DNA of 64,000 nucleotides from an uncultured Acidobacteriota bacterium. Lineage in GTDB: Bacteria > Acidobacteriota > Vicinamibacteria > Vicinamibacterales > Fen-181. The translations under genes and the position numbers were made by a program. The notes beneath the pieces are model-generated. The model worked only from the letters and a program-made list of their open reading frames with translations, did no database searches and was not told where the DNA came from. The stretch is from NCBI GenBank assembly GCA_963717945.1, contig CAVQXT010000007.1, forward strand, positions 1,006,808 through 1,070,807. Direction: 5' to 3'. Positions 4,369 through 32,916 of the stretch are shown here, in pieces; the first letter of the stretch is position 1; the number at the start of each line of letters is the position of its first letter.

Positions 4369-4418
4369 GATACTGCGTGCCTCGCCACAGAGGCGGAGCG
4401 GGAGCAGGGGTATCTGCG

Positions 4419-6192
4419 ATGGAAGGCAGCGTGAGTCCCAGCCAGGGGTTCGGGACGTTCTTCAATCGGGTCCTCCTGGTTCTGATCGCCGTCGCGGCCC
4501 TGCTGAGGGGTGCGCTGGTCTTCCGCCTGAACATCGACGGGGACGAGTTCCGATTTCTGTCGCTCGTGTACCGAGTACCTGCGGGGCCAACTCGCCACCC
4601 CGCTGATGACGATCCACGTGTATCTGTTCCGGTGGCTCCCGGCGGTCTCGACCAACGAGGCGGACCAGGTTGTCGCCGCGCGGGTGGTGATGCTCGCGCT
4701 CGCGCTGGGCTCCGCGGTCCTCACGTACCTGATCGCGAGAAGCTGTCTCTCCCGCCCGGGGGCCTTGTTCGCCGCGCTCTGTTATCTCACCTTCTCGAAC
4801 GTCGTCGTCCACGGAGCCAGCTTCCGGTTCGACCCGATCTGCTCGTTCTTCTTCCTGCTCTCTCTCTGCCTGGTGCTTTCGGCGCGCACGCGCGGGGTCA
4901 CCGGGCTGATCCTGGCCGGCGCGTGCCTCTCCGTGTCGCTGCTGGTCAGCTTGAAGTCGGTCTTCTTGATTCCGACGGCGGCGATCGTGCTCGCCATCGT
5001 GGTCCGATTCGAACACGCGAAGGGCGGCTGGAGGCCCTGGGCCTGGTTCGGCGCGGGCTCGGTGCTGGTCTCGGTTCCGCTGCTCTGGCTGCACAGCGGG
5101 CGACTCCCGCGAGGCGCCGAGGGTGCGCCGGCGGCCGCCGGCCGCCTGGCCCACGCCGTGCTGGGCCAGGCCGGTTTCTTCCCCCAGTGGCGCTACCTGC
5201 TGCTCAGCGTCCTGGAGAACCCGCTCGTCTGGGTTCTGCTCGCGCTGGGACTGGCGATGACGGCCAGGCGGGTGTTCCCCGTGAGGAGCGCCGCGAAGCG
5301 GGACCTCCTGCTCCTGAGCTTCTCCCTTCCCCTGGCGTCGCTGTCCTTCTACGGCTACGCGTATCCGTACTTCATCGCGGCGGTCATCGCGCCGGCGGTG
5401 GTGTTCTGCGGGGTCGTGTTCGACAGGCTCTACTCGAGGATGGAGGAGCACCCCGGGCACGCGGTGTGGCTCCTGCTGTTCATCCAGGTGGTGTTCGGCG
5501 GTTTCCTCGTCCAGTACCTCGGCTACTCGAACGACGAGGTCTCCCCCCAGCGGCAGACGCTGCAGGTGGTCCACGAGCTGTTCCCGGAGCCCGTCCGCTA
5601 CATCGACTCGTGCTCGATGGTGTCAGCCTATCCGCAGGTCGGGCTCTTCATGACCTCGTGGGACCTGCAGAACTACTTCGACCGCGGAGAGCCGATCATG
5701 CGGGAGGTGCTGCGGCGCGAGGTGCCGGCGTTCCTCGTGGCAGACACGTATTACCTGGCTCTCGACCGGCCGTGGCGCGACACGCTGAACGGCGGCCGTC
5801 TCGGTCTGCTGCCCGGGGACTACGCGGTCTTGAGGGACAACTTCGTGCGTCACTGGGGAGCCCTCTACGTCCCCGGCAAGCGCGTGGACTTCGCCGCGGG
5901 CGAGGCGGAGAGAGACGTCGACATCCTGATTCCCGGCGTGTATACCCTGGAGGCGGAGGACGGGGTCAGGATCGGCGGGGTCCTCGTCCGACCGGGGCAG
6001 ACGGTGTGGCTGGAGAGCGCCAGGGTCACGATCTCGCCCGCGAGAGCGCCCACGACGATCGTGCTTCGCCGGGGGGACCACCTCCGGAGGCCGTCGGCCC
6101 CGCCGCCCGGCCAGCCGCTCTTCGACGGATACTACTGGCGTACGCAGCCCTTTCCCTCTCCCGAGGAGCGCCGCAGGACATGGTCGAACTGA
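4419..6192 (+). CDS. GT-C fold membrane glycosyltransferase (PMT_2/ArnT-like) with an apparent +1 frame break at ~4572
   Basis: ORF 4606..6192 is a polytopic membrane protein. The missing N-terminus (MEGSVSPSQGFGTFFNRVLLVLIAVAALLRGALVFRLNIDGDEFRFLSLVY: TM1 plus a DE loop motif) is in another frame at 4419-4571. Skipping C4572 joins ...LVY to EYLRGQLATPLMTIHVYLF. Confidence 0.7.
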
Positions 6193-6381
6193 ACCCGCGG
6201 ACGACAGGTCAATGGCCCGGGGGCTCCGACATGGTGGCCGAGCGTGCCTGAGCGTCTGGAACGTCCTGCCCGGACCGTGAAACGCGCCGCGCTCGGGATC
6301 GCGCACGAGCTTTCGCTGGCCAGGCTGCGCGTCGAGGCCTGGCTCGCCGCATCCGGCAAGCGGCCGCGCCCCCCACGGATC

Positions 6382-7659
6382 ATGTCGAGCGGTGTCTGGA
6401 CATTTCCCGTCTACTCGCAGACATTCGTGCACCAGGAGGTCCTGGCGCTGGCGCGGGCCGGCTTTCCGGTCCGGTTCCTCTACGAGCAGCTCGGTCCCCG
6501 CGCCGAGCTCGCGCACACCTGCGACGATCTCTGGCCCCTCAAGCGGCGGCTCCTGCTGCACGCCGCGACCGGTGCCGCCGACCTCGCGCGATTCCGGCGC
6601 CGCATGCCCGCGAAGGTCGAGGCCCTGACGCAGCTCATCGCCACGGCCGCCGGGATGCGGACCGAGGAGGTCGAACGACACGAGTCCTTCCTCCAGGCGT
6701 TCTCGTACGCCAGGGCCGTCGAGGCCTGGCGGGCCGACTACCTGCACAGCTATTTCTTCTACGAACAGACGCTGTTTGCGCTGGTCGCCTCCCAGTTGCT
6801 GGACATTCCGCGCGGCGTGAGCTGCTATGCGGACCACATGCTGCGGGACTACCCGTTGAAGCTCGTGAATCTGCACCTGCAGACCTGCGACGTCGTCGTC
6901 GCGACCTCGCGCCGGATTCACGCCGAGCTCGAGACGCTGCACGGCGCGCCGCTGCCCCAGGTCGTCGTCAAGCCGAACGCGATCGACACGTCCGGTTTCC
7001 GGGTGAAGAACGGGCGGTCCCGGGCCGCCGGCACGCCGCTGCGGCTGCTGTGCGTGAGCCGGCTCGATCCCAAGAAGGGCCTCGAGTTCCTGATCGACGC
7101 GATGCGCGTGCTGACCGACCGCGGCGTGCCTGTGGTGGCGCACGTCGTCGGCGCGCCCGACACGCATTCGTCCGAGAGCCGCGACTACGCCGCGGCTCTC
7201 CGTGTCCGCGCCGCCGGACTCGGCCTGACCGACGCGGTGCGCTTCGCCGGGCGGCGGACCAGTCGCGAGGTCCGCGTCTTCCTCGCCGAGGCGGACGTGT
7301 TCGTCGCGCCGTTCGTCGATCTCCCGAGCGGCGACAAGGACGGGATTCCCACGGCCGTGCTCGAGGCGATGGCCGCCGGCAGCGTCATCGTGGCGACCGA
7401 CGCGGGCTCCATCCGCGAGATGATCGACGACGGACGTCAGGGACTGATCGTGCCGCAGCGCGACGCCGCCGCGCTGGCCGCCGCCGTGCACCGACTGGCG
7501 GGAGACCCGGCGCTCGCCGCGCGACTGGGTTCGGGCGCCGCCGCGCGCGCCCGCCTCGAGTTCGACATCGGGAGGTCGGAGACGGCCTTTCACGACCTGG
7601 TGCGGCGCGCGGTCGAGGCTCGGCGCCGGGGACGCGCGAACTCCGAGGGTCGCCGGTGA
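6382..7659 (+). CDS. GT4-family (GT-B) glycosyltransferase, WcaL-like
   Basis: ORF 6244..7659, with Glycos_transf_1-type C-terminus DKDGIPTAVLEAMAAGSVIVATDAGSIREMI. Start is either ATG 6382 or GTG 6244. Confidence 0.8.
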   Translation: MSSGVWTFPVYSQTFVHQEVLALARAGFPVRFLYEQLGPRAELAHTCDDLWPLKRRLLLHAATGAADLARFRRRMPAKVEALTQLIATAAGMRTEEVERHESFLQAFSYARAVEAWRADYLHSYFFYEQTLFALVASQLLDIPRGVSCYADHMLRDYPLKLVNLHLQTCDVVVATSRRIHAELETLHGAPLPQVVVKPNAIDTSGFRVKNGRSRAAGTPLRLLCVSRLDPKKGLEFLIDAMRVLTDRGVPVVAHVVGAPDTHSSESRDYAAALRVRAAGLGLTDAVRFAGRRTSREVRVFLAEADVFVAPFVDLPSGDKDGIPTAVLEAMAAGSVIVATDAGSIREMIDDGRQGLIVPQRDAAALAAAVHRLAGDPALAARLGSGAAARARLEFDIGRSETAFHDLVRRAVEARRRGRANSEGRR

Positions 7660-8879
7660 GGATCGCCCTGCTCTCGTTCGAGTACCCGCCGGAGACCGGA
7701 TTCGGCGGCATCGGCACGTATACGTGGTACCACGCTCGCGCGCTGGTGAAGCTGGGCCACGAGGTGCACGTGCTGGCCGGCGCGCGCGCGCCGACCGCGC
7801 GCCGTTCCAGCGAGCACGACGGCGTCCGCGTGCACCGGTTCTGGGCGGATGGCGTGGCGATGGGCAGCTTCCACCGCCTGGGCGCCTTCAGGCTCTGGTG
7901 GACCCGGCAACGGCTGCAGAACGCGTGGAGCATGTATCGAGGCCTCTCGGCGCTGCACCGCGAGCACGGGTACGACGTGGTCGAGATGCCCGAATGCGGA
8001 GCCGAAGGCGCCCTGGTGACGCGCCTGCTGACGGTGCCCTCGGTCGTGCGGCTGCACTCGCCCGCGCGGCTCATCATGCGGTACTACGACGTGCGCCCGG
8101 CGGACATCCGGCTCTGCTCGGCGGTCGAGCGGCAGGCGGTCGCGCGCGCGACGGCGCTGACGGCGTGCTCGCGGTTCGTCGCCGGCGAGGCCAGGGCGAC
8201 GCTTGGCGTTCGGCGCGAGATCCGCTCCATCACGAACGGCCTCGATCTGGACTTCTTCGATGCGACGGCGGAGAGTTTCGACGCGTTCGACCGGTTCGAG
8301 CTGCCGCGGCGGCGCCTGTTGATCGTCTTCACCGGCCGGATGGAGCGCCGCAAGGGCGTCCACCTTCTTGCCGGCATCGCCTCGTCCATCCTCGAACGGT
8401 TCGACGTCACGTTCGCGCTCGCCGGCGACGATCTGTTCGGCTATGTGGCCGGGACGCTGCTGCCGGCGCTCGCCCCGCGGAAGCGGCAGGGGTCGGTACA
8501 CTGGCTCGGGGCGCTCGGCATGACGGAGGTGCGGCAACTGGTGCGCGCGGCGGACATCGTCCTGCTGCCGAGCCTCTGGGAGAACTGCCCGTATTCGTGT
8601 CTCGAGGCGATGGCCGCCGGCCGGGCCGTCGTCTGCGCCGATCAGGGCGGCATGCCCGAGTTGATCGAGGACGGCGTGAACGGATTGCGCGCGGCGCCGG
8701 GCGAGGTCGCGTCCTTCGTCCGGCGGGTCGAAGAGCTGATCGAAGATCCGGCACTCAGGGCGCGACTGGGACGCGCCGCGCGCGCGACGATCGAACAGCG
8801 GCACGGCGACACGCACGTCGCGCGCCAGGCGCTGGACGTCTACCACGGGCTCGTCGCGGGAAGGAGGTCGGCCGCGTGA
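7656..8879 (+). CDS. GT4-family glycosyltransferase
   Basis: In-frame GTG 7656 within ORF 7050..8879, overlapping the previous stop (GTGA). The protein reads VRIALLSFEYPPETGFGGIGTYTW ... SLWENCPYSCLEAMAAGRAVVCADQGGMPELI. Confidence 0.85.
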   Translation: MRIALLSFEYPPETGFGGIGTYTWYHARALVKLGHEVHVLAGARAPTARRSSEHDGVRVHRFWADGVAMGSFHRLGAFRLWWTRQRLQNAWSMYRGLSALHREHGYDVVEMPECGAEGALVTRLLTVPSVVRLHSPARLIMRYYDVRPADIRLCSAVERQAVARATALTACSRFVAGEARATLGVRREIRSITNGLDLDFFDATAESFDAFDRFELPRRRLLIVFTGRMERRKGVHLLAGIASSILERFDVTFALAGDDLFGYVAGTLLPALAPRKRQGSVHWLGALGMTEVRQLVRAADIVLLPSLWENCPYSCLEAMAAGRAVVCADQGGMPELIEDGVNGLRAAPGEVASFVRRVEELIEDPALRARLGRAARATIEQRHGDTHVARQALDVYHGLVAGRRSAA

Positions 8880-11533
8880 ACATTCCGGTGCTCTCGCGGG
8901 CCTGGACGGAGGTACGGACGCGACTCGCCCCTCGGGCCGGTCTGTCGCGGCCAGCCGTGCCGTTTCAGGTGATCGTGGGCGCGACGGCCTGGACGGTGAA
9001 CGGCGTGAACGTCTTCTCCGCCAATCTCGTCCGGGGCCTCGCCGCACGAGGCGTGTCGGCGCACATCTTGTTGACGGAGGACGCGACCGAGCTGGCGCAG
9101 ACGCACGAGCAGGCGATGCCCCGCCCGAACGGCGTCCGCTTCGAGTCGATCCCGGTCGGCCGCGCCGCGAACTGGGGCAGGCATTGGGGAGGCATGGTGC
9201 GGTATCTCGAGCAATCCGCCCCGTGCGTCTACGTGCCGAACAGCGACTGGCGCCATTCGCTCGTGTCGCCGCGGCTCGGCCACGACGTGGTCGTCGTGGG
9301 CATCGTCCACAGCGACGACCCGATGCACTACGATCACGTGCGCCGCGTCGGGCGCTCCTGGAATGCCGTCGTGGCGGTCAGCGACACGGTGGCGCGGAAG
9401 ACCGTTGAAACGTGCCCGGACCTCGCCGGTCGCATCACGACCATTCCGATCGGCGTCCGGATTCCGGCGTCGCGGCCGCCGCGGCCACCGGCGAGCGATC
9501 GTCTCCGGGTCATCTACCACGGCATCCTGAAGCAGCATCAGAAACGGGTGCTGGACCTACCCCGCATCGTCCGGGCGGCGCGCGATCTCGGCGTGCCGAT
9601 CGAGCTGACGATCGCCGGGGCCGGTCCGGACGAATCCACGCTCAGGCGGGCCGCCGAGCCGCTGGTCTCGGAGGGCGCCATCCGCTTCCTTGGCGTCGTG
9701 TCACACGATGACATGCCGGCCGTTCTCGAATCCCACGACGTCTACCTGCTCGCGTCGGAGTTCGAGGGCATGCCCAACGCGTTGATTGAGGCCATGGGGT
9801 GCGGGCTGGTCCCGGTCGTGTCCCGCACGACGAGCGGCATCCCCGAACTCGTTCGCGATGGCCGGAACGGCTTCGTGGTGCCGATCGGAGACGCGGGCGC
9901 GTACGCCGATCGTTTGCGTACGCTCTGGCGTCATCCCTTTCGGCGCAGGCGAATGGCCGCGCGAGCGTACCGGACGGTTTCGAAGGGCCACTTTGGCGTC
10001 GAGGACATGGTCACGTCCTATCTCGAGGTCTTCGATCGCGCGTGGGGCGACGCCAGTGCCGGGCGCTTCGTGCGACCGAGGGGTCCGCTCTCTCCGCTTC
10101 CCGCCGAGGTCGCCGGAGTGAGCGTGTTTCCGGTCGACACCCCGCACGTCGTGCCGGACCTGGGCGCGTTTCCGTCGCTCGAGGACGCGGAGGATTACGA
10201 CGACGAGATTCGGACGCTGGCGAGGAACGCCGCGCGGCGGCGTCTTGTCCCTTCCAGGCGTGCTCCGGCATCGCTCGAGGACGTTCGCGTGATCGTCGCG
10301 TCGCCGGTCTGGACGCACAACGGCGTCAACCTGTGGTCTGAGGAGCTGGTGCGGGGGCTTCGAGGCGCGCGGGTCGATGCCCGGGTCCTGCTGACGGAGG
10401 AATCGACCCGCCTGGTGACGATCGACGAGCCGAGGATGGCGAGGCCGGCGGACGTCCCGGTCGAAGAACTGCAGGTGGCCGGCGCCGACAACTGGGGCGC
10501 CCGATGGGGAGCGATGGTCCGCACCCTGGAAGCCGCCGCCCCCTGCATCTACATTCCGAATTACGACTGGCGGCACTCCTGCGTGGTGCCGGCGCTCTCG
10601 GGACGCGTCGCGGTCGTCGGTCTCCTGCACGACGACGGCCCTCTCTATGCCGAGCACGCCTCGCGGCTCGGCGATTACTGGAATGCCGTGGTCGCGACGA
10701 GCCGACAAACCGCGCGCCACCTCCGCCAGGTGTCGCCCCGGTTGAGCGATCGGATGTGCACGATTCCGCACGGCGTCCGTGTGCCGGCCGAACTCGGCGA
10801 GCGGGCATGGGGCGAGGCCGGCGGAACGCTCCTGATCCCGCCGGAGACGTGTGGCGGGAGCGTGCTGTCGTTCATCCGGGCGATCGTCGAGTCGGGCAGA
10901 GGCTGGTCGCTCGTCGCCGTCGATCCGCCCGAGGCCGATCGGGAGTGGCTGGCGGCGGCGGGCGTGCGCCTGGTGATCCGCCCGGGCCGGCTGGCATGGC
11001 TGGAGTTGTGCGCGTCGAGCCACGTTGTCGTCTCTGCGGGGGGTGACCCGGGGGCGAGGCCGCCAGTCGTCGAAGCGATGGCCCATGGATGCGTGCCCGT
11101 CACGGTTGGGTCCGCGTCGGGGGACACCACCGCGAGCAGACGCCTGCGCGACACCGGCATCACCGTTCCGGACGGCCGGTGGCACGACGCGGTTGGACGC
11201 CTGCAAGCACTGGGGCAGGATGCCGACAAGTGGAAGGAGATGGCGGCGGCCGCGCACCGCACGGCTCGCGAGATCGCGTTTGGCTCGGACCAGATGACCG
11301 CCGCGTATCTCGAGCTCTTCCGGCAGGTCATCGCGGACGCCAATTCCGGCTTCTTCGCGCGTCGCCGGGGAGCGGTGCTTCCGCCGCCGGCGGCGGTTGG
11401 CGGCACCAGCGTCTTCCCCGTTCCGTTGACGCACGCGACCGAGGGGGGCGCCTTCCCCTCGGCTGAGGACGAGGCCAGCTATCGGGCGGAGCTGGCCGGA
11501 GGCGGTGAACCTGCGGTTCTGGGACTCCCGTGA
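8876..11533 (+). CDS. Tandem-duplicated double GT4-like glycosyltransferase (~885 aa)
   Basis: GTG 8876 (GTGA overlap) within ORF 7724..11533. Two homologous ~430-aa modules. The first has SEFEGMPNALIEAMGCG (EX7E). The second has a degenerate motif (GGDPGARPPVVEAMAHG). Confidence 0.8.
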   Translation: MNIPVLSRAWTEVRTRLAPRAGLSRPAVPFQVIVGATAWTVNGVNVFSANLVRGLAARGVSAHILLTEDATELAQTHEQAMPRPNGVRFESIPVGRAANWGRHWGGMVRYLEQSAPCVYVPNSDWRHSLVSPRLGHDVVVVGIVHSDDPMHYDHVRRVGRSWNAVVAVSDTVARKTVETCPDLAGRITTIPIGVRIPASRPPRPPASDRLRVIYHGILKQHQKRVLDLPRIVRAARDLGVPIELTIAGAGPDESTLRRAAEPLVSEGAIRFLGVVSHDDMPAVLESHDVYLLASEFEGMPNALIEAMGCGLVPVVSRTTSGIPELVRDGRNGFVVPIGDAGAYADRLRTLWRHPFRRRRMAARAYRTVSKGHFGVEDMVTSYLEVFDRAWGDASAGRFVRPRGPLSPLPAEVAGVSVFPVDTPHVVPDLGAFPSLEDAEDYDDEIRTLARNAARRRLVPSRRAPASLEDVRVIVASPVWTHNGVNLWSEELVRGLRGARVDARVLLTEESTRLVTIDEPRMARPADVPVEELQVAGADNWGARWGAMVRTLEAAAPCIYIPNYDWRHSCVVPALSGRVAVVGLLHDDGPLYAEHASRLGDYWNAVVATSRQTARHLRQVSPRLSDRMCTIPHGVRVPAELGERAWGEAGGTLLIPPETCGGSVLSFIRAIVESGRGWSLVAVDPPEADREWLAAAGVRLVIRPGRLAWLELCASSHVVVSAGGDPGARPPVVEAMAHGCVPVTVGSASGDTTASRRLRDTGITVPDGRWHDAVGRLQALGQDADKWKEMAAAAHRTAREIAFGSDQMTAAYLELFRQVIADANSGFFARRRGAVLPPPAAVGGTSVFPVPLTHATEGGAFPSAEDEASYRAELAGGGEPAVLGLP

Positions 11534-11584
11534 CCAACGCAGACGATCGGCAACGCTCGCTCCTCCTCGCCCCGCAACGACGCC

Positions 11585-12361
11585 GTGGCCGCGATCCGTC
11601 GGTACTGGTATCCGTCGCTGGCGCTCGCCCGGCGCGAGGTGCGGAAGCGGTACGCCTCGTCGGTGCTGGGCGTGGCGTGGACGGTTCTCCAGCCGCTCAT
11701 CCTCCTCGCCATCTACGTCTTCGTGTTCGGCTTCGTGCTCAGCGTCTCGCACCCCGCGGACGACGGCCGCGGGTTCGTGTTGTTCCTTCTGAGCGGCATG
11801 CTGCCGTATCTCGCGGCCGCCGATGGCATTCAGCGCGCCAGCCTGTCGCTGCGCGAAGACCGCGCGCTGGTCGAGCGCGACACGTTCCCCGCGCAGGTCA
11901 TTCCCGTCTCGAGGGTGCTCAGCGCGGCGGTGGGCGAAGTGGTGGGGCTCGGCCTGCTGATTGCGCTGGCGATCGCGTTCGGCAGACCCGTGAGCGTCTG
12001 GATTCTCGTCCTGCCGATCCTGGTCGTGCTCCGCGTGGTCATGACGTGCGGCATCGCGTGGATCGTCAGCATGCTGGCCGTCTTCGTCTCCGATCTGAAC
12101 GAGGCGCTCTCGCTGCTCCTGACGGCGTGGCTGTTCCTGACGCCGATCTTCTACCCCGAGGAGGCGGTGCCCCGGGTGCTTCGCTGGCTGCTGCTGGTCA
12201 ACCCGTTGCATCATGTCGTCCGCGCGTACCGGAGCGTGCTGCTCGAGGGGCGGGCGCCCGTGCCTGACGCGGGATACGTCGTGCTGTGGGCGGTCGGGCT
12301 GTCGGCGGTCGGCGCGTGGTTCTTCCGGAAGGCGCTGGACCGGGGAAAGGACTTTCTCTAA
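11585..12361 (+). CDS. wzm: ABC-2 type polysaccharide export permease (Wzm)
   Basis: ORF 11585..12361 reads LARREVRKRYASSVLGVAWTVLQPLILLAIYVFVFG, followed by six TM segments. Confidence 0.85.
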   Translation: MAAIRRYWYPSLALARREVRKRYASSVLGVAWTVLQPLILLAIYVFVFGFVLSVSHPADDGRGFVLFLLSGMLPYLAAADGIQRASLSLREDRALVERDTFPAQVIPVSRVLSAAVGEVVGLGLLIALAIAFGRPVSVWILVLPILVVLRVVMTCGIAWIVSMLAVFVSDLNEALSLLLTAWLFLTPIFYPEEAVPRVLRWLLLVNPLHHVVRAYRSVLLEGRAPVPDAGYVVLWAVGLSAVGAWFFRKALDRGKDFL

Positions 12362-12365
12362 ATCG

Positions 12366-13547
12366 ATGATCAGCATACGGGCGCAGGGACTCGGCAAGGC
12401 GTATCGCATTTACAAGCGGCCCTTCGACAGCTTGAAGGAACTGGTGCTCCGCCGCGAGTACTCCGAGACGTTCTGGGCGCTGCGCGACGTGTCGCTGGAA
12501 GTCGCCAGGGGCGGGTCGCTCGGCATCATCGGCGACAACGGCGCCGGCAAGTCCACGCTCCTCAAGCTGCTCGCCGGGGCGACGGCGCCGAGCGCGGGGC
12601 AGGCCGAGCGCAGCGGCCGGGTCTCGGCCATTCTCAGTCTCGGCGCGGGCTTCCACCCGGATCTGTCGGGCATCGAGAACATCCGGATCGGCTGCGCGAT
12701 TCTGGGGCTCTCGCCGGCAGAGACCGAGGTGCACCTGGCGGAGATCGTGGAGTTCTCCGAGCTGGGTTCGTTCGTGGAGCGCCCGGTGAGGACGTACTCC
12801 TCGGGCATGTACCTGCGGCTCGGCTTCTCGGTCGCCACCGCCGTGGCGCCACAGATTCTGATCGTTGACGAGCATCTCTCCGTCGGTGACCAGCACTTCA
12901 GACGCAAGTGCATGCGCCGCATCATGGCGTTGCGGGAGGCCGGCTGCACGCTCGTGTTCTGCTCGCACGACCTGCACGCGGTCCGGGAGGTGTGCGACCG
13001 CACGTTGTGGCTCCAGGCCGGCCGGCCGGCGATCCTGGCCGCCACGTCTTCGGCGATCGAAGCCTACCAGGATCACATCCGGGCCCGTGATGCGGAAGTC
13101 GAGGGGCCGGTCGGGAACCAGGAAGCGCCGCGCGACCACCCCGCGGACAACTACCTGACCGACGTGGCGCTTGGCGGCGACTGCCGGGACGGCCAGGTCG
13201 AGACAGGCGGAAAGCTCGAACTCCGGATTCTCGCGCGGCTGTCGCAAGCGGTATACCGCGACGGGGTCCACGTTGGATTGATCCTCGTCCGAAAGGACGC
13301 CGTCTGGTGCTATGGCGTCGCGACGAAGTGGGATGGCCTGTCTTCTGGATTGTACCCGAGGGGAGGCGATGACTATGGCGTGCGCTTCGTGGTGGATGCG
13401 CTGCCGTTACTGTCAGGTCAATACAGCTTTATCGTTGCGCTGATGGACGATCGCAGTCCGCACCTGTACGACACCTGGTCCAACGTCGCGGCCGTTCACG
13501 GTACAGCACGGCGGCAAGGAGGTCGGTGTCATGCGGATACCCCATAG
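12366..13547 (+). CDS. wzt: Polysaccharide ABC exporter ATPase (Wzt) with C-terminal glycan-binding domain; its true end is probably 13566 after a +1 frame break near 13494-13503
   Basis: ATG 12366 within ORF 12213..13547. Walker A GDNGAGKST, signature YSSGMYLRLGF, Walker B ILIVDE. The C-terminal ~150 aa are Wzt_C-like. See the finding for the frame break. Confidence 0.85.
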   Translation: MISIRAQGLGKAYRIYKRPFDSLKELVLRREYSETFWALRDVSLEVARGGSLGIIGDNGAGKSTLLKLLAGATAPSAGQAERSGRVSAILSLGAGFHPDLSGIENIRIGCAILGLSPAETEVHLAEIVEFSELGSFVERPVRTYSSGMYLRLGFSVATAVAPQILIVDEHLSVGDQHFRRKCMRRIMALREAGCTLVFCSHDLHAVREVCDRTLWLQAGRPAILAATSSAIEAYQDHIRARDAEVEGPVGNQEAPRDHPADNYLTDVALGGDCRDGQVETGGKLELRILARLSQAVYRDGVHVGLILVRKDAVWCYGVATKWDGLSSGLYPRGGDDYGVRFVVDALPLLSGQYSFIVALMDDRSPHLYDTWSNVAAVHGTARRQGGRCHADTP

Positions 13548-13562
13548 ATGGGATCGCCCGGA

Positions 13563-14738
13563 ATGACGTTCACACCTGGCGATGGAGGGTGTCGACCCTA
13601 TGACATCGTTATTGTCGGGACCGGCCCCGCCGGGTCGGCATTCGCCCGGTCAGTGAGGCGGGCAGCCCCGCACCTCCGGATCCTCGCGATTGAGGAGAAC
13701 CCCCATCCCAGAGACAAGGTCTGCGGCGGCGCGCTGACCTACCGTGCCTTGCCGCTCGTGCGGACGCTCTTTCCAGAGGTCGGCTCCATTCCCACGACGA
13801 GCTTCACCAGGGAGTATCGGCTCTGCTTCCCCAACGGTCGGAGCGTTGCTCGAGGCGACGGCGAGTTCGCCGTCGTCTGTCGGCGCGTGTTCGATGAGGC
13901 CCTGTGGAATGCGGCGCGATCGGATGGCGTGGAGACGCTCGAGGATGCTCGCGTCACCGGGCTGCTGCGGAGCGCCGGACGGGTCACCGGCGTCTGCGTG
14001 GAGCGGCGGTCGGCACGTTGGAACGTCGAGTGCAGGATGGTCGTGGGAGCGGACGGGTCGACGAGCGTCGTGCGACGGTGCACGGGGAGCGGACCATCAC
14101 GCAGCCGAGGAGCAGCCGTCCGACAGTTCATGCGTGGCGTCGAGCCGGCGGCCCGGGCACTTGTGTTCCTCGTCGATCCGGGGTGTCATGGGTATCTCTG
14201 GATCTTCCCCTTCGAGTCGGAGGGGGAGCGGTGGGCCAACGTCGGGTACTTCTGCCATACCGGGCGAGGCGTGGACCCTCGAGGGCGGTATGCGTCGATG
14301 CGGCAACATGCGGTTGCGAGACGATACTTGACTGGCGCGACCGAGGTCACGCCGCTGGAGGGCTTTCCTCTGAACCTGGCCCGAACGCACCGGGGCCGAC
14401 TTGTGCTCGATCGGCGGGTCACCGGCCCCGGGTACGTGCTCGTCGGCGACGCGGCAGGATTGGCGCATCCCGATACAGGCGAGGGAATCGCGTTTGCCTT
14501 GCACTCGGGGAGGATCGCCGGCGAGCTGGCGGCGGAGTCGCTCGACGCGGCCACGTGGGGACCGGCGTACGAACGTCTGGCTGTCCGATTCGCCCAGGAC
14601 GCAGATCCTACGGGGTTGCTGTCGTTCGTGTTCCGAGTCCCGGGCGCGTTGCCCCCCCTGGCCAGGGACTTGTATATGCGTCTGTTGCCATGGTGGCTGA
14701 ACAGGCGGCAAGGAGAGCGCGCGGCATGGCCAGCCTGA
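13563..14738 (+). CDS. FAD-dependent oxidoreductase, geranylgeranyl-reductase family
   Basis: ORF 13548..14738. YDIVIVGTGPAGSAF (dinucleotide fold) and RDKVCGGAL. Start is ATG 13548 or ATG 13563; the latter makes an ATGA overlap with the frame-corrected wzt stop. Confidence 0.75.
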   Translation: MTFTPGDGGCRPYDIVIVGTGPAGSAFARSVRRAAPHLRILAIEENPHPRDKVCGGALTYRALPLVRTLFPEVGSIPTTSFTREYRLCFPNGRSVARGDGEFAVVCRRVFDEALWNAARSDGVETLEDARVTGLLRSAGRVTGVCVERRSARWNVECRMVVGADGSTSVVRRCTGSGPSRSRGAAVRQFMRGVEPAARALVFLVDPGCHGYLWIFPFESEGERWANVGYFCHTGRGVDPRGRYASMRQHAVARRYLTGATEVTPLEGFPLNLARTHRGRLVLDRRVTGPGYVLVGDAAGLAHPDTGEGIAFALHSGRIAGELAAESLDAATWGPAYERLAVRFAQDADPTGLLSFVFRVPGALPPLARDLYMRLLPWWLNRRQGERAAWPA

Positions 14739-16340
14739 GCAAAGAGCTTATCGAAGAGTACAACCGGACCCGTGGCGAGGACGTCGATCGGAGCGTCCTC
14801 TGCCACGCGCCGTTCACGAGCATGAACTTCGAGCAGACGGGCAAGGCCAGCGCCTGCTGCTACAACAGGACCCACGTCTTCGGCGAGTATCCCAGGGACA
14901 GCGTCGAGCAGATGTGGTTCGGCGCGGCGGCGGAACAGCTCCGGAACGACATCCGCCAGGACAGTCTCGAGGGCGGCTGCAGCATGTGCAAGCGGCAGCT
15001 CGAGAGCGGCAACCTCGCCGGCTGCAAGGCCAGGATCTACGACCAGTACGCTCAGGGAACGCCGGAGCAGGGAAGCAGAGTCCTCACGTTGCCATCGCCC
15101 GCGCGGGCCGTTGCGATGCCCAGGGTGATGGAGTTCGAACTCGAGAATACCTGCAACCTCCAGTGCATCATGTGCGACGGGTTCTTTTCCTCGGCGATTC
15201 GCAGACACCGCGAGAAGCAACCGCCTCAGCACAGGCCGTACGACGCCGATTTCGTGAAGCAGCTCGCGGAGTTCATGCCGCATCTCGAGGAGATGAAGTT
15301 TCTCGGCGGCGAGCCGTTCATGATCGGGATCTACTACGACATCTGGGAGCAGGTGGCGCGCGTCAACCCCGGCGTGAAGATCCACATCACGACGAACGCG
15401 ACCACGCTCAACCCGCGCACGAAGACGCTGCTCGAGAAGATGAGGGGGGCGGGGTTGAGGTGTACCTTCTGCGTCTCGATCGACTCGGTGCGGAAGGAGA
15501 CCTACGAGGCGATCCGGGTTGGCGCCTGCTACGAACAGGTGATGGAGAACATCGCGTGGCTCTCGGACTACGCGATGAAGCGGAACGCCTCTCTCGGCTT
15601 CGCCGTCTGCCCGATGGCCATCAATCGGTTCGAGATGCCAGACCTCGTAAGGTTCGCGAGCGAGAGGGGCATCGTCGTGACCTACAACACGGTGCTGAAG
15701 CCGCCCGAGCAGGCGTTGCGCTTCCTGAACCATGAGGAACTCGATGAGCTGATCGCGAACTACGAGAGCCGCATGCCAACACACGGCTCACCGATCGGCA
15801 AGATCAACCTCGACTACTTCACGGGCTACGTGAACCAGGTGAGGGCGTGGAGGGACGAAATCGAGAAACCCAGTGATCAGATGGCCGAGCTCAGGCGCAT
15901 CGACCCGTCATCCCGCCCGCAGGCGCCGGAACTGACGCGGAAGATCCTGCTGGCCAGCATCATCGGAGCCGGCGGCCGGCGGGACCGGCTGCCGCCGGAC
16001 CCCGAACTGGACGGTGTGACGCCGGAAGACTTCCGGGGCTACCTCTGCGCGAAGCTCTCCGAGACTGCGCCGGAGCAGTTCTGGGACGCCTACCTCGCCT
16101 GCCTCGACTGGGTCGCTTCGGAATGCCTGCCGCCGGCCGAGTACCGAGGAGTTTCGGCGCAAGTGGGACGCGCTCCTGAAGATCGCGGTGGGCCTCGTCG
16201 CGAGCGCGAAACTCGCAATACTCTCAGACCTGCTCCGGGGCGATGTGGTCGCGCACCTGCGTTTCATTCTGGCCACGGACATCGCCGTCATCGTGGGGGG
16301 ACTTCATCGGTACGAGAAGTCACCCGCGTCTCACCCCTGA
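14726..16340 (+). CDS. Radical SAM enzyme with an N-terminal SPASM-like Cys cluster; apparent +1 frame break at ~16145
   Basis: ATG 14726 (RBS AGGAGAG) inside ORF 13904..16987. CNLQCIMC (CX3CX2C). The N-terminal region is LCHAPFTSMNFEQTGKASACCYN...GGCSMCKRQ. After 16145 the called frame turns R/G/P-rich, while the +1 frame gives EEFRRKWDALLKIAVGLVASAKLAILSDLL... and stops at 16338-16340. Confidence 0.75.
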
Positions 16341-16493
16341 TCAAACCCCGCACCGGCTACGGACCGCGCAGAACGCGACAGTTGCGTGCAGCCGGCCGGA
16401 CACGAGGGAGTGTAGTATCAGCAGCACGTCGAACGGGCCGGAACCGGACCACGCGTTCCGACCCGGTACCGTTCACGTCGAGGCGGCTGAGAT

Positions 16494-18665
16494 ATGAAGA
16501 CGGTCATCGTGACGCCAGAACTGGCCGGGCTTTGCCCTCAGGGGGGCATCGGGTCATTCGCCTGGCATCTGTCCCGGCTCCTGCGGTCGGTGGGGGAGGA
16601 GGTGACGGTTCTGCTCACGGGACGAGCCCGCCCCGCCCGGATGCGCTGGGCGGGTCGGTACGAAGGGGCGGGCATCGACGTGCGCACGGTCAGCCCGAGG
16701 GCCTTCCCTCCGAACACGATCGGGGCATGGGATTTCGTCGGTCGCGGACATGCCGTCGCGGATGCGATCCCGGGCGACGCCGATGTGGTCTATTTCCAGG
16801 ATTGGCTGGCAGACGGATTCGTTCCGGTTCGCATGAGGCGATTGCAGAGGAGGCGGCACCCTGTGTTCGTGAACGTCCTGCACAGTCCGACGGCCTGGAT
16901 CCGCGAGGCCATGGCCGAGTATCCGCGCCACGTGCTCCACGACATGAGCCTGGATTTCGCCGAGCGCTACGTCGCCGAGCACGTTGACTTCATTGCCTCG
17001 CCGAGTCAGTACATGCTCAGGTTCGTATCGGACCAGGGCTGGCAGTTGCCGGATTCGGATCGTACTGCGGTGCTTGGTTACCCGATTGTGCCGGACTCGA
17101 CGCCACCTGGTGCGCCCAGCTCGTCGCGACCGGGCGAGTTTCGCCGCATCGCGTTTCTCGGGAGATTCGAAGTCAGGAAGGGCACGGGGCTTTTCGTCGA
17201 TGCCCTGCGTCAGCTTCACCGCCGGCGGCCGGAGCTCCTGGACTCGATCGAGGAGATCGCCTTCGTCGGCCGGGAGGGAAACACCGGCGATCTCTCACCG
17301 CGACGCGCGGCGAACCGGCTGTCTTCGCTGCGCGCGCGGATTCGGTTCCTGAGCCGTCTGGACACAGAGGAGGTTCAGGCCCTCCTGCGATCCTGGGCAC
17401 ACGACACGCTGGTGGTGGTTCCCAGCCTCGACGACAACTACCCTTACGTCGTGATCGAAGCGTCGCTCGTTGCCGGCTTGCATGTCATCTGCTCGAACGC
17501 GGGCGGCATGCGCGAGATTCTCCTGCCCGCGGCCGGCGACCAGTTCTTCGACCCTTCCGAGCGGTCTCTCGGCGACGCTCTCGCGCGGTACCTGGCATCC
17601 GGTCCGCGTTCTCAGGCGGGACTGCATCCATATGACTGGAATCGCCACAACCGGGAGTGGCTCGATTTTCACGACCGGGTCCGGCGCGCCAGAGAGCCGC
17701 AACCGGGCGCCCTCGCCGTCTCCAGCAGGCCGACCCGGCACGTGGACGTCTGCATTCCCTTCTTCAATCACGGGGCATACCTGCCGGCGTTGCTCGAAGC
17801 GCTGGCGAACCAGACGCTGTCGGCGGGCTCGGTCACGGTGGTCGACGACGGTTCAACCGACGGTGAGTCGCAGCGCGTTCTTGCTGAGATGGGAAGCAAG
17901 TATGCCGACCGGAACTGGCGCTTCGAGGCCTCGGCGGTCAACAGGGGCGTCAGCGCCGCCAGGAACGCCGCGGCCTCGAAGGGGCATGCCGAGTACCTGC
18001 TGTTCCTCGACGCCGACAACGTGCCCGTTCCCCACATGGTCGAGCGGTTCCTGTCGGCCATCGAGGATTCCGGCGACGACTGCCTGACCTGCTACTTCCG
18101 TGCCTTCGAGGGCAGGCACGCTCCGTTCGAACGGGCCACCGAAGAGGCGGGGAAGTGCGCCATCCGCCAGGTCGTCCCCACCAGGTACGATTTCCTGCCT
18201 CTCGGACCGTGTCTCCCGCTCGGGCTCTTCGACAATTTCTTCGGAGACGCCAATTTCATCGTTCGACGATCGGTCTTCGAAGCCCTCGGAGGGTTCTCCG
18301 AGGAGCCCGAATACCGGTACGACACCCACGAGGATTACGAGTTCCTGCTGCGGCTCATCCTCGCGGGAAAGACCCTGGATGTGGTGCCGGAGGTCCTGTT
18401 CTTCTACCGAGTCACCGGGAGCGGCCTCATGGGGACGACGAGCGAGTACCGGAATCGCCTGCGCGTGCACCGGGCTTACGCCGCGCTCCTGCAGAACGCG
18501 GGCCTGCCCGGCCTCGTGCCGTACGTCTACGGCCTGTACGAGAGGGGCAAGCCGCTGGAGTTCCTGGTGGCTGAAGCGCGACGGGCGCTCCGTCATCCGC
18601 TCGCGGCCGCCGCGACGATCGGTCGGGCGGGGCTGCGGACCCTGTGGAAGCGGTTCGACGGCTGA
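16494..18665 (+). CDS. Bifunctional glycosyltransferase (N-terminal GT4/GT-B + C-terminal GT2/GT-A)
   Basis: ORF 16494..18665. The N-terminal half is GT-B-like. The C-terminal half reads VDVCIPFFNHGAYLPALLEALANQT...VVDDGSTDGES...LFLDADN (GT2 DxD). Confidence 0.8.
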   Translation: MKTVIVTPELAGLCPQGGIGSFAWHLSRLLRSVGEEVTVLLTGRARPARMRWAGRYEGAGIDVRTVSPRAFPPNTIGAWDFVGRGHAVADAIPGDADVVYFQDWLADGFVPVRMRRLQRRRHPVFVNVLHSPTAWIREAMAEYPRHVLHDMSLDFAERYVAEHVDFIASPSQYMLRFVSDQGWQLPDSDRTAVLGYPIVPDSTPPGAPSSSRPGEFRRIAFLGRFEVRKGTGLFVDALRQLHRRRPELLDSIEEIAFVGREGNTGDLSPRRAANRLSSLRARIRFLSRLDTEEVQALLRSWAHDTLVVVPSLDDNYPYVVIEASLVAGLHVICSNAGGMREILLPAAGDQFFDPSERSLGDALARYLASGPRSQAGLHPYDWNRHNREWLDFHDRVRRAREPQPGALAVSSRPTRHVDVCIPFFNHGAYLPALLEALANQTLSAGSVTVVDDGSTDGESQRVLAEMGSKYADRNWRFEASAVNRGVSAARNAAASKGHAEYLLFLDADNVPVPHMVERFLSAIEDSGDDCLTCYFRAFEGRHAPFERATEEAGKCAIRQVVPTRYDFLPLGPCLPLGLFDNFFGDANFIVRRSVFEALGGFSEEPEYRYDTHEDYEFLLRLILAGKTLDVVPEVLFFYRVTGSGLMGTTSEYRNRLRVHRAYAALLQNAGLPGLVPYVYGLYERGKPLEFLVAEARRALRHPLAAAATIGRAGLRTLWKRFDG

Positions 18666-18762
18666 CGAGGCGGCGGCGACGCCGCGGACCACTCCGCGAC
18701 GCGCGGGTGTTCACGCGGTTCCATGGTAGGATGCCGTCTCGCAGGCCTCAGTCGAGATCACG

Positions 18763-19725
18763 GTGGTTCAGGAGTTCAAATCTCTGCCAAAGGACGGAGG
18801 GTCGAAAGCGCCGCGGTCGCCGACGGTGTCGGTCGTGATCCCGACGCTCAACGCCGAGCCCTTTCTGCGGGGCATTCTCGAGGCGGTCTTCACCCAGGAA
18901 CCGACGAGCCCGTCGGAAGTCGTCCTGGTGGACTCGATGTCCACCGACGCCACGCGGGACATCGCCGCCTCCGTGGCCCGCGTCCGGGTCGTCCCGATCT
19001 CCGACTTCTCGCACGGCCGCGCCCGGAACCTCGGCGCGCGCGCGGCGACGGGGGAGATCGTCGTCATGCTGACGCAGGACGCGATGCCGGCCGGCAGGAC
19101 GTGGCTCGCTGCGCTTCTCACCGCCTTCGCCGACCCGCAGGTCGTGGCGAGCTACTCGCGGCAGGTCCCGCGGGCCGACGCGAACCCGATGGAACGGTTC
19201 TTCCTCGAGCGGCGATTCCCGCCGCGCCCGCCGGTGCGACGAGCGCGGCGCGGCGACGGCCCGCTCACGCTGGAGGACGTGTTCTTCTCGAACGTCAGCG
19301 CCGCGATCCGCCGGGAGGCGCTGGTCTGTCATCCGTTCGACGAAGGGCTGATCATGAGCGAGGATCAGCAGTTCTCCCGGGACGTGATCGCGGCCGGGCA
19401 CGCGGTGGTCTACCAGCCGGAGTCGGTCGTGATCCACTCCCACGACTACTCGGCGGCCACGTGTTTCAGGCGCTACTTCGACAGCGCGTGCTCGCTCAAG
19501 GTGATCTTCCCGGAGCACGGGCTCGCAAGAACCGTGGCGATGGCCGCCAGCTACCTGCCCGACGAGGCCAGGTACATGGTGCGCGCGCATCCGCGGTCGC
19601 TCCCGAGGTACCTCCTCTATAATCTCGCGAAGGTCGGCGGCACCCTGGCCGGCCTCATGGGCGATCGGCTGCCGCGCCGGGCCGCCCGGGCCCTCAGCCT
19701 GCACCGGTACCACTGGGAGGAGTAG
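18763..19725 (+). CDS. GT2-family glycosyltransferase (rhamnosyltransferase-like)
   Basis: ORF 18763..19725 contains VSVVIPTLNAEPFLRGILEAV...VLVDSMSTDATRDIA...MLTQDAMP. Confidence 0.8.
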   Translation: MVQEFKSLPKDGGSKAPRSPTVSVVIPTLNAEPFLRGILEAVFTQEPTSPSEVVLVDSMSTDATRDIAASVARVRVVPISDFSHGRARNLGARAATGEIVVMLTQDAMPAGRTWLAALLTAFADPQVVASYSRQVPRADANPMERFFLERRFPPRPPVRRARRGDGPLTLEDVFFSNVSAAIRREALVCHPFDEGLIMSEDQQFSRDVIAAGHAVVYQPESVVIHSHDYSAATCFRRYFDSACSLKVIFPEHGLARTVAMAASYLPDEARYMVRAHPRSLPRYLLYNLAKVGGTLAGLMGDRLPRRAARALSLHRYHWEE

Positions 19726-20466: not shown

Positions 20467-20574
20467 ACGTCACTCCCTGGTTCGGGCGGAGCCCACTCAC
20501 CGCGCCGGCACGGTCCCACCCGTCAGAATGTATCGGCCGCTCGACACCACAGGGCCAGTCCCCCCCGATCAAGG

Positions 20575-20643
20575 CCCGTGGTATCCTCCCTTCCCGTGCG
20601 CACCGGCCGTCCGAATTCCCCCTGACGGTGGAGCGTCTTCGCC
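20575..20643 (+). pseudogene. Degenerate copy A of the yigZ promoter-proximal/5' coding segment
   Basis: Aligns with 23431-23526 and 27298-27392 (tatcctccc..cgtgcgca..tccgaattc..ctgac.gt.ga.cg) but carries indels. Confidence 0.5.
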
Positions 20644-20660
20644 ACGGGAGACCGCGCCCG

Positions 20661-21859
20661 ATGATCGACCCCGTCGAACGTGCCGCCCGCGAAATGCGCA
20701 ACCAGGCGAAAGTCGTGGCGGTGGTCATGTGGGCGGCGTTCGCGCTCAACTGGGCCGACCCCCACGCTTGTGGATCGCTATCTCGGGGGGCGTCAAAGGC
20801 GCTGACTTCGTTCAGTTCTACAGCCTGGCCACCGCGAGTCGGTTACATGACTTTGCCGCCCTCACATCGTCCCGTGAGCTGCACATCGTGCAGGCCAGGG
20901 CCGTCCCGCAGGCCGTCGGGGACAACTTCCCCGCAGTGTACCCACCGCAGGTCGGGCTTGCGCTCCAGCCGCTCGCGTTCTTCTCGTACCCGGTCGCCCT
21001 CGCACTGTGGACCCTGCTGACCTGGGCTCTTTACGGCACGGCTACCTGGCTTCTCTGGAGGTGCTGCCCGCGCCTGCGGCCGTACGGCCGGACAGTCGCG
21101 TGGGTGGCATGCGCATTCCCGGCGTTCTGGTGGCTCGTCACGACCGGCCATCTGTCTGCAGTGGCGTTGGGAGCGCTGGCGCTGGCCTGCCTTGCCCTGG
21201 ACCGGAAACGGTCCTGGCTGGCCGGGTGCGCCATCGGGTTGCTGGCATACAAATGGACGCTGCTGCTTCCGGCTGTCGCGGTTTGCCTCCTTGCCGGTGA
21301 ATTCACGATGCTGCTGGGCGCCGCGGCCGTCACCGCAGGCCAACTCGGCCTCGCGGTGCCGTTTGTCGGCCTGGACGGCGTCCGCCAGCACTTTGTCACG
21401 ATGTTCGACTTGAGTCGAACGCCGGATGTGCTGGCCGCCAAGCCATACATGATGTACTCGCTGCGTACCTTCTGGGCGACCCTCGTGCCTGACCGTCTCG
21501 CGGTCGTCCTGTATCTCGCCTCGGCGCTGTGCGTCTTGATCGTGGCCGCTCGCGCGTGGCGTCGAACTTCGTCAGCAACAGGCCGCGTCGGGCTCCTGGC
21601 CTGCGCGGTCGTGCTGGCGACGCCGCACTTGTTTGCGTACGACCTCGTGGTCCTCGTCCCGGCGATCCTGCTCGCGGCAGACACGGCCCTGGCGCTGCCA
21701 CGCGGAAGCGCCGCGAGGACGATGCTGACTCGAACGAACCATGCCGTGTTCTTCGTGATGTTGTTCAGCCTTGTGGCCGCGGTGGCGCGGATTCAACTCG
21801 CCACCCCGCTGCTATTCTTCTGGCTCGTTCTGCTCGCCCGTTCCGTCCGCCTCCGTTGA
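20661..21859 (+). CDS. DUF2029/GT87-like polyprenol-phosphate-dependent membrane glycosyltransferase; apparent -1 frame break at the C5 run 20759-20763
   Basis: ORF 20528..21859 carries the core (GADFVQFYSLA plus many TMs). The N-terminal TM segment MIDPVERAAREMRNQAKVVAVVMWAAFALNWADP lies in the frame of ORF 20628..21020. One extra C in the run would join ADP-PRLWIAISGGVKGADFVQFY. Confidence 0.65.

Positions 21860-29835: not shown

Positions 29836-32916
<3,081 letters not shown>

Follow-up and report, generated by a model that had tools for sequence, protein, structure and literature searches.

Positions 4419-23458 of a 64,000-nt stretch of DNA from an uncultured Acidobacteriota bacterium (the whole stretch is hereafter the window, in whose numbering all coordinates are given) are a real surface-polysaccharide locus with an ordinary ATP-binding cassette (ABC)-exporter core. 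What is new relative to this core is the coupling of a UbiA-family prenyltransferase to the glycan polymerase, together with two accessories, a radical S-adenosylmethionine enzyme (rSAM) and a flavoenzyme of the geranylgeranyl reductase (GGR) family. Our reading, held with a little less than even confidence, is that the locus encodes a UbiA-coupled variant of the ABC-transporter pathway, wherein GGR would saturate a prenyl group and rSAM would tailor the glycan, and that three apparent frameshifts in the locus are probably errors.

O antigens, capsules and cell-wall glycans are products of Wzm/Wzt pathways, for which few initiation (WecA-type) and termination (WbdD, WbbB) chemistries are known. 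The clusters described below add a polymerase that carries a UbiA domain, a prenyl reductase that recurs and an rSAM family of considerable size, for which roles are proposed here. By homology, two single GT4 glycosyltransferases (GTs; GT4a and GT4b), the putative double-GT4 polymerase g4, a GT4-GT2 protein and a GT2 enzyme assemble the chain on a lipid, on the inner side of the membrane. Wzm and Wzt, the latter with a C-terminal binding domain, export the chain, which two GT-C-fold enzymes can modify outside the cytoplasm. From the family assignments, co-occurrences and gene fusions given below, we infer the further reactions. The UbiA prenyltransferase, a separate gene here and an N-terminal fusion to g4 in many orthologous clusters, would act with the polymerase and attach an isoprenoid to the lipid-linked glycan, either on the primer/anchor or on the chain. 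GGR would then saturate this prenyl group in a step that is strain-variable and dispensable, and the rSAM, which belongs to an N-twitch family, would be a cytoplasmic glycan-tailoring enzyme within a variable decoration set.

A more specific form of this proposal is possible, if still doubtful. UbiA, fused to or complexed with the polymerase, might install an isoprenoid on the ABC-exported polysaccharide, either as an undecaprenyl-independent primer or anchor, or as a terminal mark read by the Wzt domain, with GGR optionally saturating it and the N-twitch rSAM carrying out radical chemistry on the nascent glycan. If true, this would give Wzm/Wzt pathways a way of initiating or terminating chains not known before, found from Acidobacteriota to Betaproteobacteria.

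UbiA prenyltransferase and its coupling to the polymerase

A preliminary description of this stretch placed the end of the cluster at 19725. However, the GT87 gene (plus strand) and the gene of a 548-aa UbiA-family protein (minus strand) beyond that point also belong to it, extending the cluster to 23458. The closest genomes are those of uncultured Acidobacteriota, represented by metagenome-assembled genome (MAG) contigs (L003 and L004 with 93% nucleotide identity, L005 with 87%), and both genes are kept beside the cluster in L004 and L005.

The UbiA subfamily has invariant Asp-rich motifs, which in the subfamily alignment correspond to N101, D105 and D109, and to D238 and D242. By profile, the window protein groups in one subfamily with the UbiA domains of the g4 fusions and with the UbiA genes found beside rSAM in Bacteroidota. 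The fusion is recurrent: PF01040 lies in the same polypeptide (~1190-1310 aa, UbiA at the N-terminus) in 26 of the 120 best g4 homologue clusters. All eight fusions inspected keep N-D-x-x-D-x-x-x-D and D-x-x-x-D, and the UbiA domain is therefore predicted to be an enzyme, not a mere membrane anchor. The subfamily profile matched DGGGP synthase (E=4e-8), AfUbiA (6e-8) and chlorophyll synthase (7e-6) better than decaprenyl-phosphate phosphoribosyltransferase (8J8J; 0.33, 13 bits); neither phmmer nor NCBIfam gave a DPPR synthase match to the window protein.

The C-terminal domain of the window UbiA (~110 aa) is homologous to CBM_4_9-like domains of SGNH, TPR and GT proteins in related clusters. 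Its own CBM_4_9 score in Pfam is weak (15.6 bits), and homologues score above the cut-off. Since the C-terminus of UbiA is joined to nucleotide-sugar-dependent GT domains in the fusions, that end should be cytoplasmic, and so, by inference, should the CBM-like domain. A transmembrane helix count by crude hydropathy did not serve to confirm this placement, which rests on the fusion architecture.

As for g4 itself, Pfam and PDB sequence searches at normal thresholds match the N-terminal half only, the C-terminal half reaching just E=0.003 in Pfam. Compared with the GT4 profile by hhalign, however, the C-terminal half scores a probability of 99.6% (E=4e-24), and the double module announced in the preliminary description is therefore correct, as is its count of three GT4 genes (the two single ones and g4). 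That description also reported a GT4-GT2 fusion, which is indeed present, but called it WbdA-like; the two-GT4, WbdA-like architecture is that of g4 (8876-11533), which on its domain make-up is the putative polymerase. A tail motif of ~45 residues (R-x-x-G-P-x-x-P-P-x-x-V-x-G-x-S-[VLI]-F-P-V ... F-P-S-x-x-D) follows each GT-B module of g4, at protein residues ~395-440 and ~830-885, and is kept in all UbiA-g4 fusions read.

Orthologues of the core are found well outside the Acidobacteriota. In the betaproteobacterium Massilia sp. DWR3-1-1 (GCA_049898325.1; L090), the core stands in the same order as in the window: GT4a (59% identity), GT4b (65%), UbiA-g4 (48%; 1191 aa), wzm (51%) and wzt with Wzt_C (61%). 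It is preceded by a CBM-SGNH protein, a GT4-GT2 protein and a PMT_2-like GT-C, and followed by a 380-aa protein without assignment, two Gmd/Rmd-like enzymes, an SGNH-CBM protein, a GT2 and a carbamoyltransferase; neither rSAM nor GGR lies within 10 kb of the cluster. With the fusion in a named strain, the system is accessible to genetics and to lipid and glycan mass spectrometry without recourse to an uncultured source. L085 encodes a 1204-aa UbiA-g4, in which the UbiA part shares 34% identity with the window UbiA and the remainder 50% with g4 over 877 residues; wzm (58%), wzt with Wzt_C (66%), a methyltransferase and GGR (55%) follow, and no rSAM is present on this 15-kb contig. In L089, GT4a (77%) and GT4b are accompanied by a UbiA-g4 fusion with 73% identity to g4 and by rSAM (77%). 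The Acidobacteriota locus L075 carries GT4a (48%) and GT4b (58%), then UbiA directly before rSAM, and the Planctomycetota MAG L017 carries wzm, wzt, GT4b (57%), rSAM and GT4a (45%). Given this cross-phylum orthology, the window core belongs to a type of cluster that is widespread. Judged by gene content, its variable part consists of rSAM, GGR, methyltransferase, SGNH and carbamoyltransferase genes.

Radical SAM enzyme and GGR flavoenzyme

The rSAM announced in the preliminary description is a member of NF033640 (N_Twi_rSAM; 173.9 bits against a cut-off of 170). In Pfam, a SPASM/twitch match at residues 26-89 precedes the Radical_SAM domain (141-295). The protein has the CX3CX2C cluster and five invariant N-terminal cysteines, the invariant residues being C26, C44, C45, C85, C88, C143, C147 and C150. 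The AlphaFold model (pLDDT 84.9) has an extra C-terminal helical domain of ~190 aa, members of the family here being ~530 aa in length, and its Foldseek matches are the cores of BlsE, MoaA, SkfB and viperin. A PDB sequence search with rSAM gave no match. The family is large: of the candidates that were scored, 535 clusters reached E<=1e-5. To our knowledge NF033640 is a named family with no reaction assigned, and it here gains a concrete genomic context.

To describe this context, one genome per species was scanned, which gave 80 rSAM loci, mostly from Bacteroidota and 52 of them with full 10-kb flanks, and the neighbouring open reading frames (ORFs) were clustered. The commonest neighbour is a UbiA gene of the window's subfamily, found at 46 of the 80 loci and within 10 kb at 37 of the 52 that are fully flanked. 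A 410-aa family without Pfam match lies beside rSAM at 40 loci, a GT-C+TPR family at 18, Wzt within 10 kb at 11 and Wzm at 8 (each out of 80). Other neighbours are SGNH/GDSL, GT32-like, methyltransferase, carbamoyltransferase, PhyH dioxygenase, AsnB-like amidotransferase, GT2, GT4 and GT8-like genes. The rSAM genes usually occur as 2-6 tandem paralogues (mean 2.4 per fully flanked locus).

Orthologues of rSAM stay with window-type GTs (GT4a, GT4b, g4) in other Acidobacteriota and in the Planctomycetota MAG, and paralogues follow wzm-wzt in L091. The enzyme is thus an integral, cross-phylum part of such glycan clusters, and not a chance neighbour. L091 (1-13448) holds four tandem PhyH genes, wzm, wzt with Wzt_C, a B12-binding rSAM, a methyltransferase and three N-twitch rSAMs; among its products, P0089, encoded after wzm-wzt(Wzt_C), is an rSAM fused to CBM_4_9 (33.8 bits). 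The L091 set is flanked by IS66 transposases. Tandem arrays of 2-6 N-twitch rSAM genes beside UbiA were also seen in L083 (=L049), L084 (=L012), L010, L076 and other Bacteroidota and Acidobacteriota loci, in the company of GT32-like, PhyH, CMAS-like methyltransferase, AsnB-like and GT-C with TPR genes. A literature search linking radical SAM to UbiA, Wzt or twitch returned nothing relevant, the two Xanthomonas papers found dealing with unrelated radical SAM genes.

The flavoenzyme, likewise named in the preliminary description, scores 153.3 bits against TIGR02032, below the cut-off of 158.8. In an alignment to the Thermoplasma GGR (3OZ2), its catalytic Cys, Y-x-W-x-F-P motif and GDAA...G-x-G-I segment are conserved. 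Its YxWxFP motif is of the GGR type rather than the halogenase type (WxWxIP). An exact-sequence look-up of the window GGR returned no record.

The relative L005 shows what becomes of the locus when GGR is missing. Its contig is collinear with window 4349-13587 and 14715-23436, and precisely 13588-14714 is missing. The first 25 nt and the last 24 nt of the GGR ORF are kept, joined at a GGAG microhomology; the gene was therefore deleted in that lineage. Without GGR, L005 retains rSAM and wzt, the binding domain of the latter being 92% identical. On this genomic comparison, GGR is dispensable and strain-variable.

Searches place GGR in a distinct subfamily (42-55% identity), the closest member beyond the immediate relatives being that of L085 (55%). 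In all five contexts of the subfamily that were examined (the window, L085, L086, L087 and L088), a UbiA-family gene lies within ~8 kb. GGR-family enzymes pair with UbiA-family transferases in several established systems, namely ChlG-ChlP, DGGGP synthase-GGR and MenA-MenJ. Together, the known pairs and the recurrent UbiA neighbour support the view that the substrate of GGR would be a prenyl group on which UbiA acts, and which GGR would saturate. The preliminary description had named the flavoenzyme as a candidate for modifying the lipid carrier. In its favour, GGR looks like a prenyl modifier with a recurrent UbiA partner, but the deletion in L005 shows such a step to be dispensable.

Members of the same GGR subfamily (L086 8001-10048 and L087 10001-11947; proteins P0135, P0141-P0144, P0148 and P0149) adjoin or are fused to a PF04240 (Caroten_synth) membrane protein and have UbiA genes of another subfamily nearby. 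The combination of GGR, PF04240 and other-subfamily UbiA suggests a separate isoprenoid-modifying module.

Weighing of the alternatives

Several observations weigh against the UbiA-coupled reading. The UbiA genes beside GGR in L086-L088 are of other UbiA subfamilies and do not lie in glycan clusters, so that the GGR-UbiA link holds only at the superfamily level. The similarity of UbiA to prenyl-diphosphate-using enzymes is weak (36 bits). GT-C enzymes accompany UbiA not only in the window but also in Massilia and Bacteroidota, which would fit a role in making a lipid-linked sugar donor as well. As for rSAM, Foldseek places it only in a generic MoaA/viperin/BlsE/SPASM group (TM ~0.3 on the query), 15 of the 52 fully flanked loci have no UbiA within 10 kb, and 17 of the 52 contain only one rSAM copy. 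Real frameshifts would mean that three of the genes are inactive. Finally, a literature search found no paper on the three unusual enzymes (rSAM, GGR and UbiA).

The preliminary description reasoned from established Wzm/Wzt systems that rSAM and/or the flavoenzyme could make a chain-terminating cap, to be read by the binding domain of Wzt. The premise stands. Wzt carries such a domain (Wzt_C, PF14524), which reaches 32.8 bits when taken alone and 29.9 bits when the entire protein is scanned (cut-off 30.4) and is also annotated in the wzt orthologues of L001, L085 and L090. The best solved relative of the window Wzt is that of Aquifex aeolicus (E=1.5e-67), and the TagH and RfbE NCBIfam models match it with E=1e-51 to 1e-60, under their equivalog cut-offs. 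No terminator of the WbdD type was seen, in that no kinase or methyltransferase domain occurs in any product of 4419-23458 at the Pfam and NCBIfam thresholds used, nor is there a Kdo-transferase terminator in the cluster.

Assigning the cap to rSAM, with or without GGR, we nevertheless consider unlikely. The slot after wzt, where wbdD stands in E. coli O9a, is occupied by GGR and rSAM in the window, by a methyltransferase in L085, and by the B12-rSAM, methyltransferase and three N-twitch rSAMs in L091; moreover, one rSAM is fused to a carbohydrate-binding module. These facts would suit a cap maker. However, the type of the Wzt domain does not track either enzyme. Massilia, with neither of them within 10 kb, has a domain of 55% identity, L085, with GGR and no rSAM on the contig, one of 49%, and L005, from which GGR has been lost, one of 92%. 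Conversely, the Planctomycetota locus L017 has rSAM but a binding domain without detectable similarity. The domain is 48% identical in L091, in which rSAMs are present and a UbiA-GT fusion lies elsewhere on the contig. Across these comparisons, the binding-domain type follows the g4/UbiA core, not rSAM or GGR, with the proviso that an identity of ~50% is no proof of the same ligand. In addition, a Wzt-like gene is within 10 kb at only 11 of the 80 rSAM loci, as against UbiA at 46.

A second alternative, also unlikely in our estimation, is that the locus is a variant of three-component extracytoplasmic glycosylation or of mycobacterial arabinan synthesis, whereby UbiA would make a polyprenyl-phosphate pentose donor, rSAM and/or the flavoenzyme would convert it, much as DprE1/DprE2 or the SDR epimerase do, and the GT-C enzymes would transfer it to the exported chain. 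Three-component pentofuranose systems consist of a polyprenyl phosphoribose synthase, a flippase and a GT-C of family GT136, as in Citrobacter youngae O1/O2, and they give a precedent for a UbiA-type synthase, a GT-C and an auxiliary epimerase within a Wzm/Wzt O-antigen locus (Kelly et al. 2024, PMC11127046). The window combines UbiA with two GT-C-fold genes (the PMT_2-like one and GT87) in one Wzm/Wzt cluster, a GT-C also occurs in the Massilia cluster, and the GT-C+TPR family lies at 18 of the 80 rSAM loci. In Xanthomonas lipopolysaccharide cassettes, too, wzm/wzt stand together with UbiA, GtrA and oxidoreductases of the FAD and SDR types. However, the UbiA profile barely matches decaprenyl-phosphate phosphoribosyltransferase (the E=0.33, 13-bit match given above), whereas the synthases of three-component systems share ~30% identity with DPPR synthase (PMC11127046). 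The products scanned in and around the cluster include neither a HAD phosphatase nor a flippase of the MATE or GtrA type, small ORFs not having been scanned exhaustively. Fusion of UbiA to a cytoplasmic Leloir-type polymerase would be unexpected for a donor synthase, and the flavoenzyme has the motifs of GGR (a C=C reductase), not those of DprE1.

Third, the locus might be decaying, with real frameshifts that leave GT-C, the Wzt C-terminus and rSAM inactive here, which we hold to be improbable. Three single-base insertions do occur within 12 kb relative to the close relatives, near 4573 (GT-C), 13493 (wzt) and 16162 (rSAM). Yet every site amounts to one extra base through which the relatives read, and the sequence past each shift still codes for conserved protein. 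In GT-C, residues 1-52 of the L005 orthologue find their match in 4419-4574, read in a different frame. The insertion at 13493 sits in the last 30 codons of wzt, and without it wzt ends in the ATGA overlap with the GGR gene (13563-13566). The insertion at 16162 makes the rSAM ORF run to 16987, whereas the homologues P0001 and P0002 continue frame 0 to 16340, with sizes of 536-537 aa. At 16162, a 'CG' of the window corresponds to a single C or G in two relatives, which suggests a consensus artefact and hence consensus errors in a long-read assembly. All other genes are full length with strong third-position GC bias. The relative L005 has similar breaks in wzt, and the relatives are themselves MAG contigs. 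The three frameshifts are thus probably assembly or sequencing errors. Third-position GC falls to ~0.64-0.82 in 13150-14600 (wzt 3' end and GGR) and in 16000-17700 (rSAM 3' end, spacer and the 5' half of the GT4-GT2 gene), as against ~0.9 in neighbouring genes, which hints at a different history for these segments.

Finally, a chance neighbourhood, in which neither rSAM nor GGR is connected with the glycan, is very improbable and for rSAM largely refuted: GGR is indeed absent from the collinear L005 and some rSAM loci (L057, L070) have no recognisable glycan genes, but in L089, L075 and L017 rSAM orthologues accompany GT4a, GT4b and g4/UbiA (42-77% identity), the GGR subfamily lies beside UbiA-g4, wzm and wzt in L085, and an rSAM-CBM fusion exists.

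Gene content and surroundings of the locus

The window has a GC content of ~70%, and mechanical ORF lists are therefore crowded by false frames. An actinobacterial source, which such a GC content might suggest, was rejected because a sigma-54 activator and multihaem cytochromes are encoded in the flanks and the closest genomes come from Acidobacteriota. Genes were called from third-position GC frame plots and inspection of start codons, and then assigned with Pfam and NCBIfam. This gave ten genes in 4419-19725, one fewer than the eleven of the preliminary description, all on the plus strand as it had said; with GT87 and UbiA they are listed in the table. Its ABC-transporter-dependent glycan cluster is borne out by wzm, wzt with Wzt_C and the complement of GTs, GT-C and GT2 among them. 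Position 4419 is the true start of GT-C, and the overlaps that it noted are present (GTGA at 7656-7659 and 8876-8879, ATGA at 13563-13566).

Genes of the locus, in window coordinates
Feature	Coordinates	Strand	Basis and remarks
GT-C glycosyltransferase, PMT_2-like, ~590 aa	4419..6192	+	Pfam PMT_2 33 bits; as-written uninterrupted ORF 4606-6192
GT4a, GT4 glycosyltransferase	6244..7659	+	Pfam
GT4b, GT4 glycosyltransferase	7656..8879	+	Pfam; GTGA overlaps on both sides
g4, double GT-B (GT4 + divergent GT4-like module), 885 aa	8876..11533	+	Pfam, hhalign
wzm, ABC-2 permease	11585..12361	+	Pfam ABC2_membrane PF01061 66.7 bits
wzt, ATPase + C-terminal Wzt_C, 399 aa after removing 1-nt insertion	12366..13566	+	ABC_tran, Wzt_C; as-written stop 13547
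GGR-family flavoenzyme (prenyl C=C reductase type)	13563..14738	+	TIGR02032; ATGA overlap with wzt
rSAM, N-terminal twitch + C-terminal helical domain, ~537 aa	14726..16340	+	NF033640; as-written ORF to 16987
GT4-GT2 bifunctional glycosyltransferase	16494..18665	+	Pfam; orthologue with 78% identity in L089
GT2 glycosyltransferase	18763..19725	+	Pfam Glycos_transf_2 79.8 bits; closest solved relative 6YV7
GT87 family (GT-C fold) glycosyltransferase	20528..21859	+	Pfam GT87 68.8 bits; synteny with L004, L005
UbiA-family prenyltransferase (~49-373) + C-terminal CBM_4_9-like domain (~398-511), 548 aa	21812..23458	-	PF01040 60.9 bits, cut-off 34.2

The GT2 enzyme was considered as a lipid-sugar synthase of the GtrB/DPM1 type and is not clearly one. 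In agreement with the preliminary description, no nucleotide-sugar synthesis domain was found in the ten products by Pfam and NCBIfam, and a scan of the window's other large ORFs yielded no gene for an initiating phosphoglycosyltransferase or for sugar nucleotides. Among the flanking products scanned, there is no kinase, methyltransferase or nucleotide-sugar-enzyme domain except for an APH domain 10 kb downstream and outside the cluster; it is part of a 1026-aa fusion of APH-type phosphotransferase, M23 peptidase and class-III aminotransferase (29836-32916, minus strand), which is kept in L002.

On the 5' side, the cluster is bordered by a sigma-54 activator and Tad pilus genes. No sigma-54 promoter was found before the cluster (4175-4419). 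The only perfect sigma-54 -24/-12 site, TGGCACCGATTTTGCT (2409-2424, minus strand), abuts the 5' end (2409) of a TadE-like ORF (1855-2409), which the activator gene (2846-4174) adjoins; the role of the activator probably lies with the Tad pilus genes and not with the glycan cluster. Between GT2 and GT87 lies a DnaJ-domain gene (19807-20466, minus strand), which is present in L005 and not in L004, where 19815-20659 is without counterpart, a small indel. Between the UbiA and Impact_N (UPF0029) genes, which are nearly adjacent in L005, the window carries a 974-aa protein with cytochrome b-like and multihaem c-type domains (24090-27014).

Comparison with known systems

The polymannose pathway of E. 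coli O9a and Klebsiella O3 (WbdC, WbdB, WbdA, WbdD, Wzm and Wzt) shares with the window Wzm and a Wzt with C-terminal carbohydrate-binding domain (PMC11127046 and general knowledge). Single GT4s and a double-GT4, polymerase-like protein are common to both, Wzx/Wzy are absent, and the genes for nucleotide sugars and initiation may lie elsewhere. Unlike that pathway, the window has no WbdD and adds the GT4-GT2 protein, GT2, two GT-Cs, a UbiA that is coupled to the polymerase (fused in orthologues), GGR and rSAM.

Among systems with a UbiA, the closest published analogues are the three-component systems and the mycobacterial set of DPPR synthase, DprE1-E2 and arabinosyltransferases, which share with the window UbiA, GT-C and Wzm/Wzt, and in which redox enzymes could diversify a lipid-linked intermediate. 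They differ from the window in that its UbiA falls outside the phosphoribosyltransferase clade by profile, that no phosphatase or flippase is among the products scanned, that UbiA is fused to the polymerase in orthologues, and that the redox partners are GGR and rSAM, not a FAD-oxidase and SDR epimerases.

In WbbB of Klebsiella O12 and Raoultella, a soluble N-terminal Kdo transferase acts as terminator and is fused to polymerase GT modules. The UbiA-g4 fusions resemble this arrangement, having a non-polymerase catalytic domain at the N-terminus and two GT modules at the C-terminus within a system that uses a Wzt binding domain. However, the N-terminal domain here is an integral-membrane UbiA, not a soluble Kdo transferase, and by this analogy a terminator role for UbiA is only a possibility. 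The enzyme pairs DGGGP synthase/archaeal GGR, ChlG/ChlP and MenA/MenJ show the same pairing of UbiA and GGR, with the catalytic Cys and YxWxFP motif kept in the window enzyme; here, however, the pair sits in a polysaccharide export cluster, and not in lipid, pigment or quinone synthesis.

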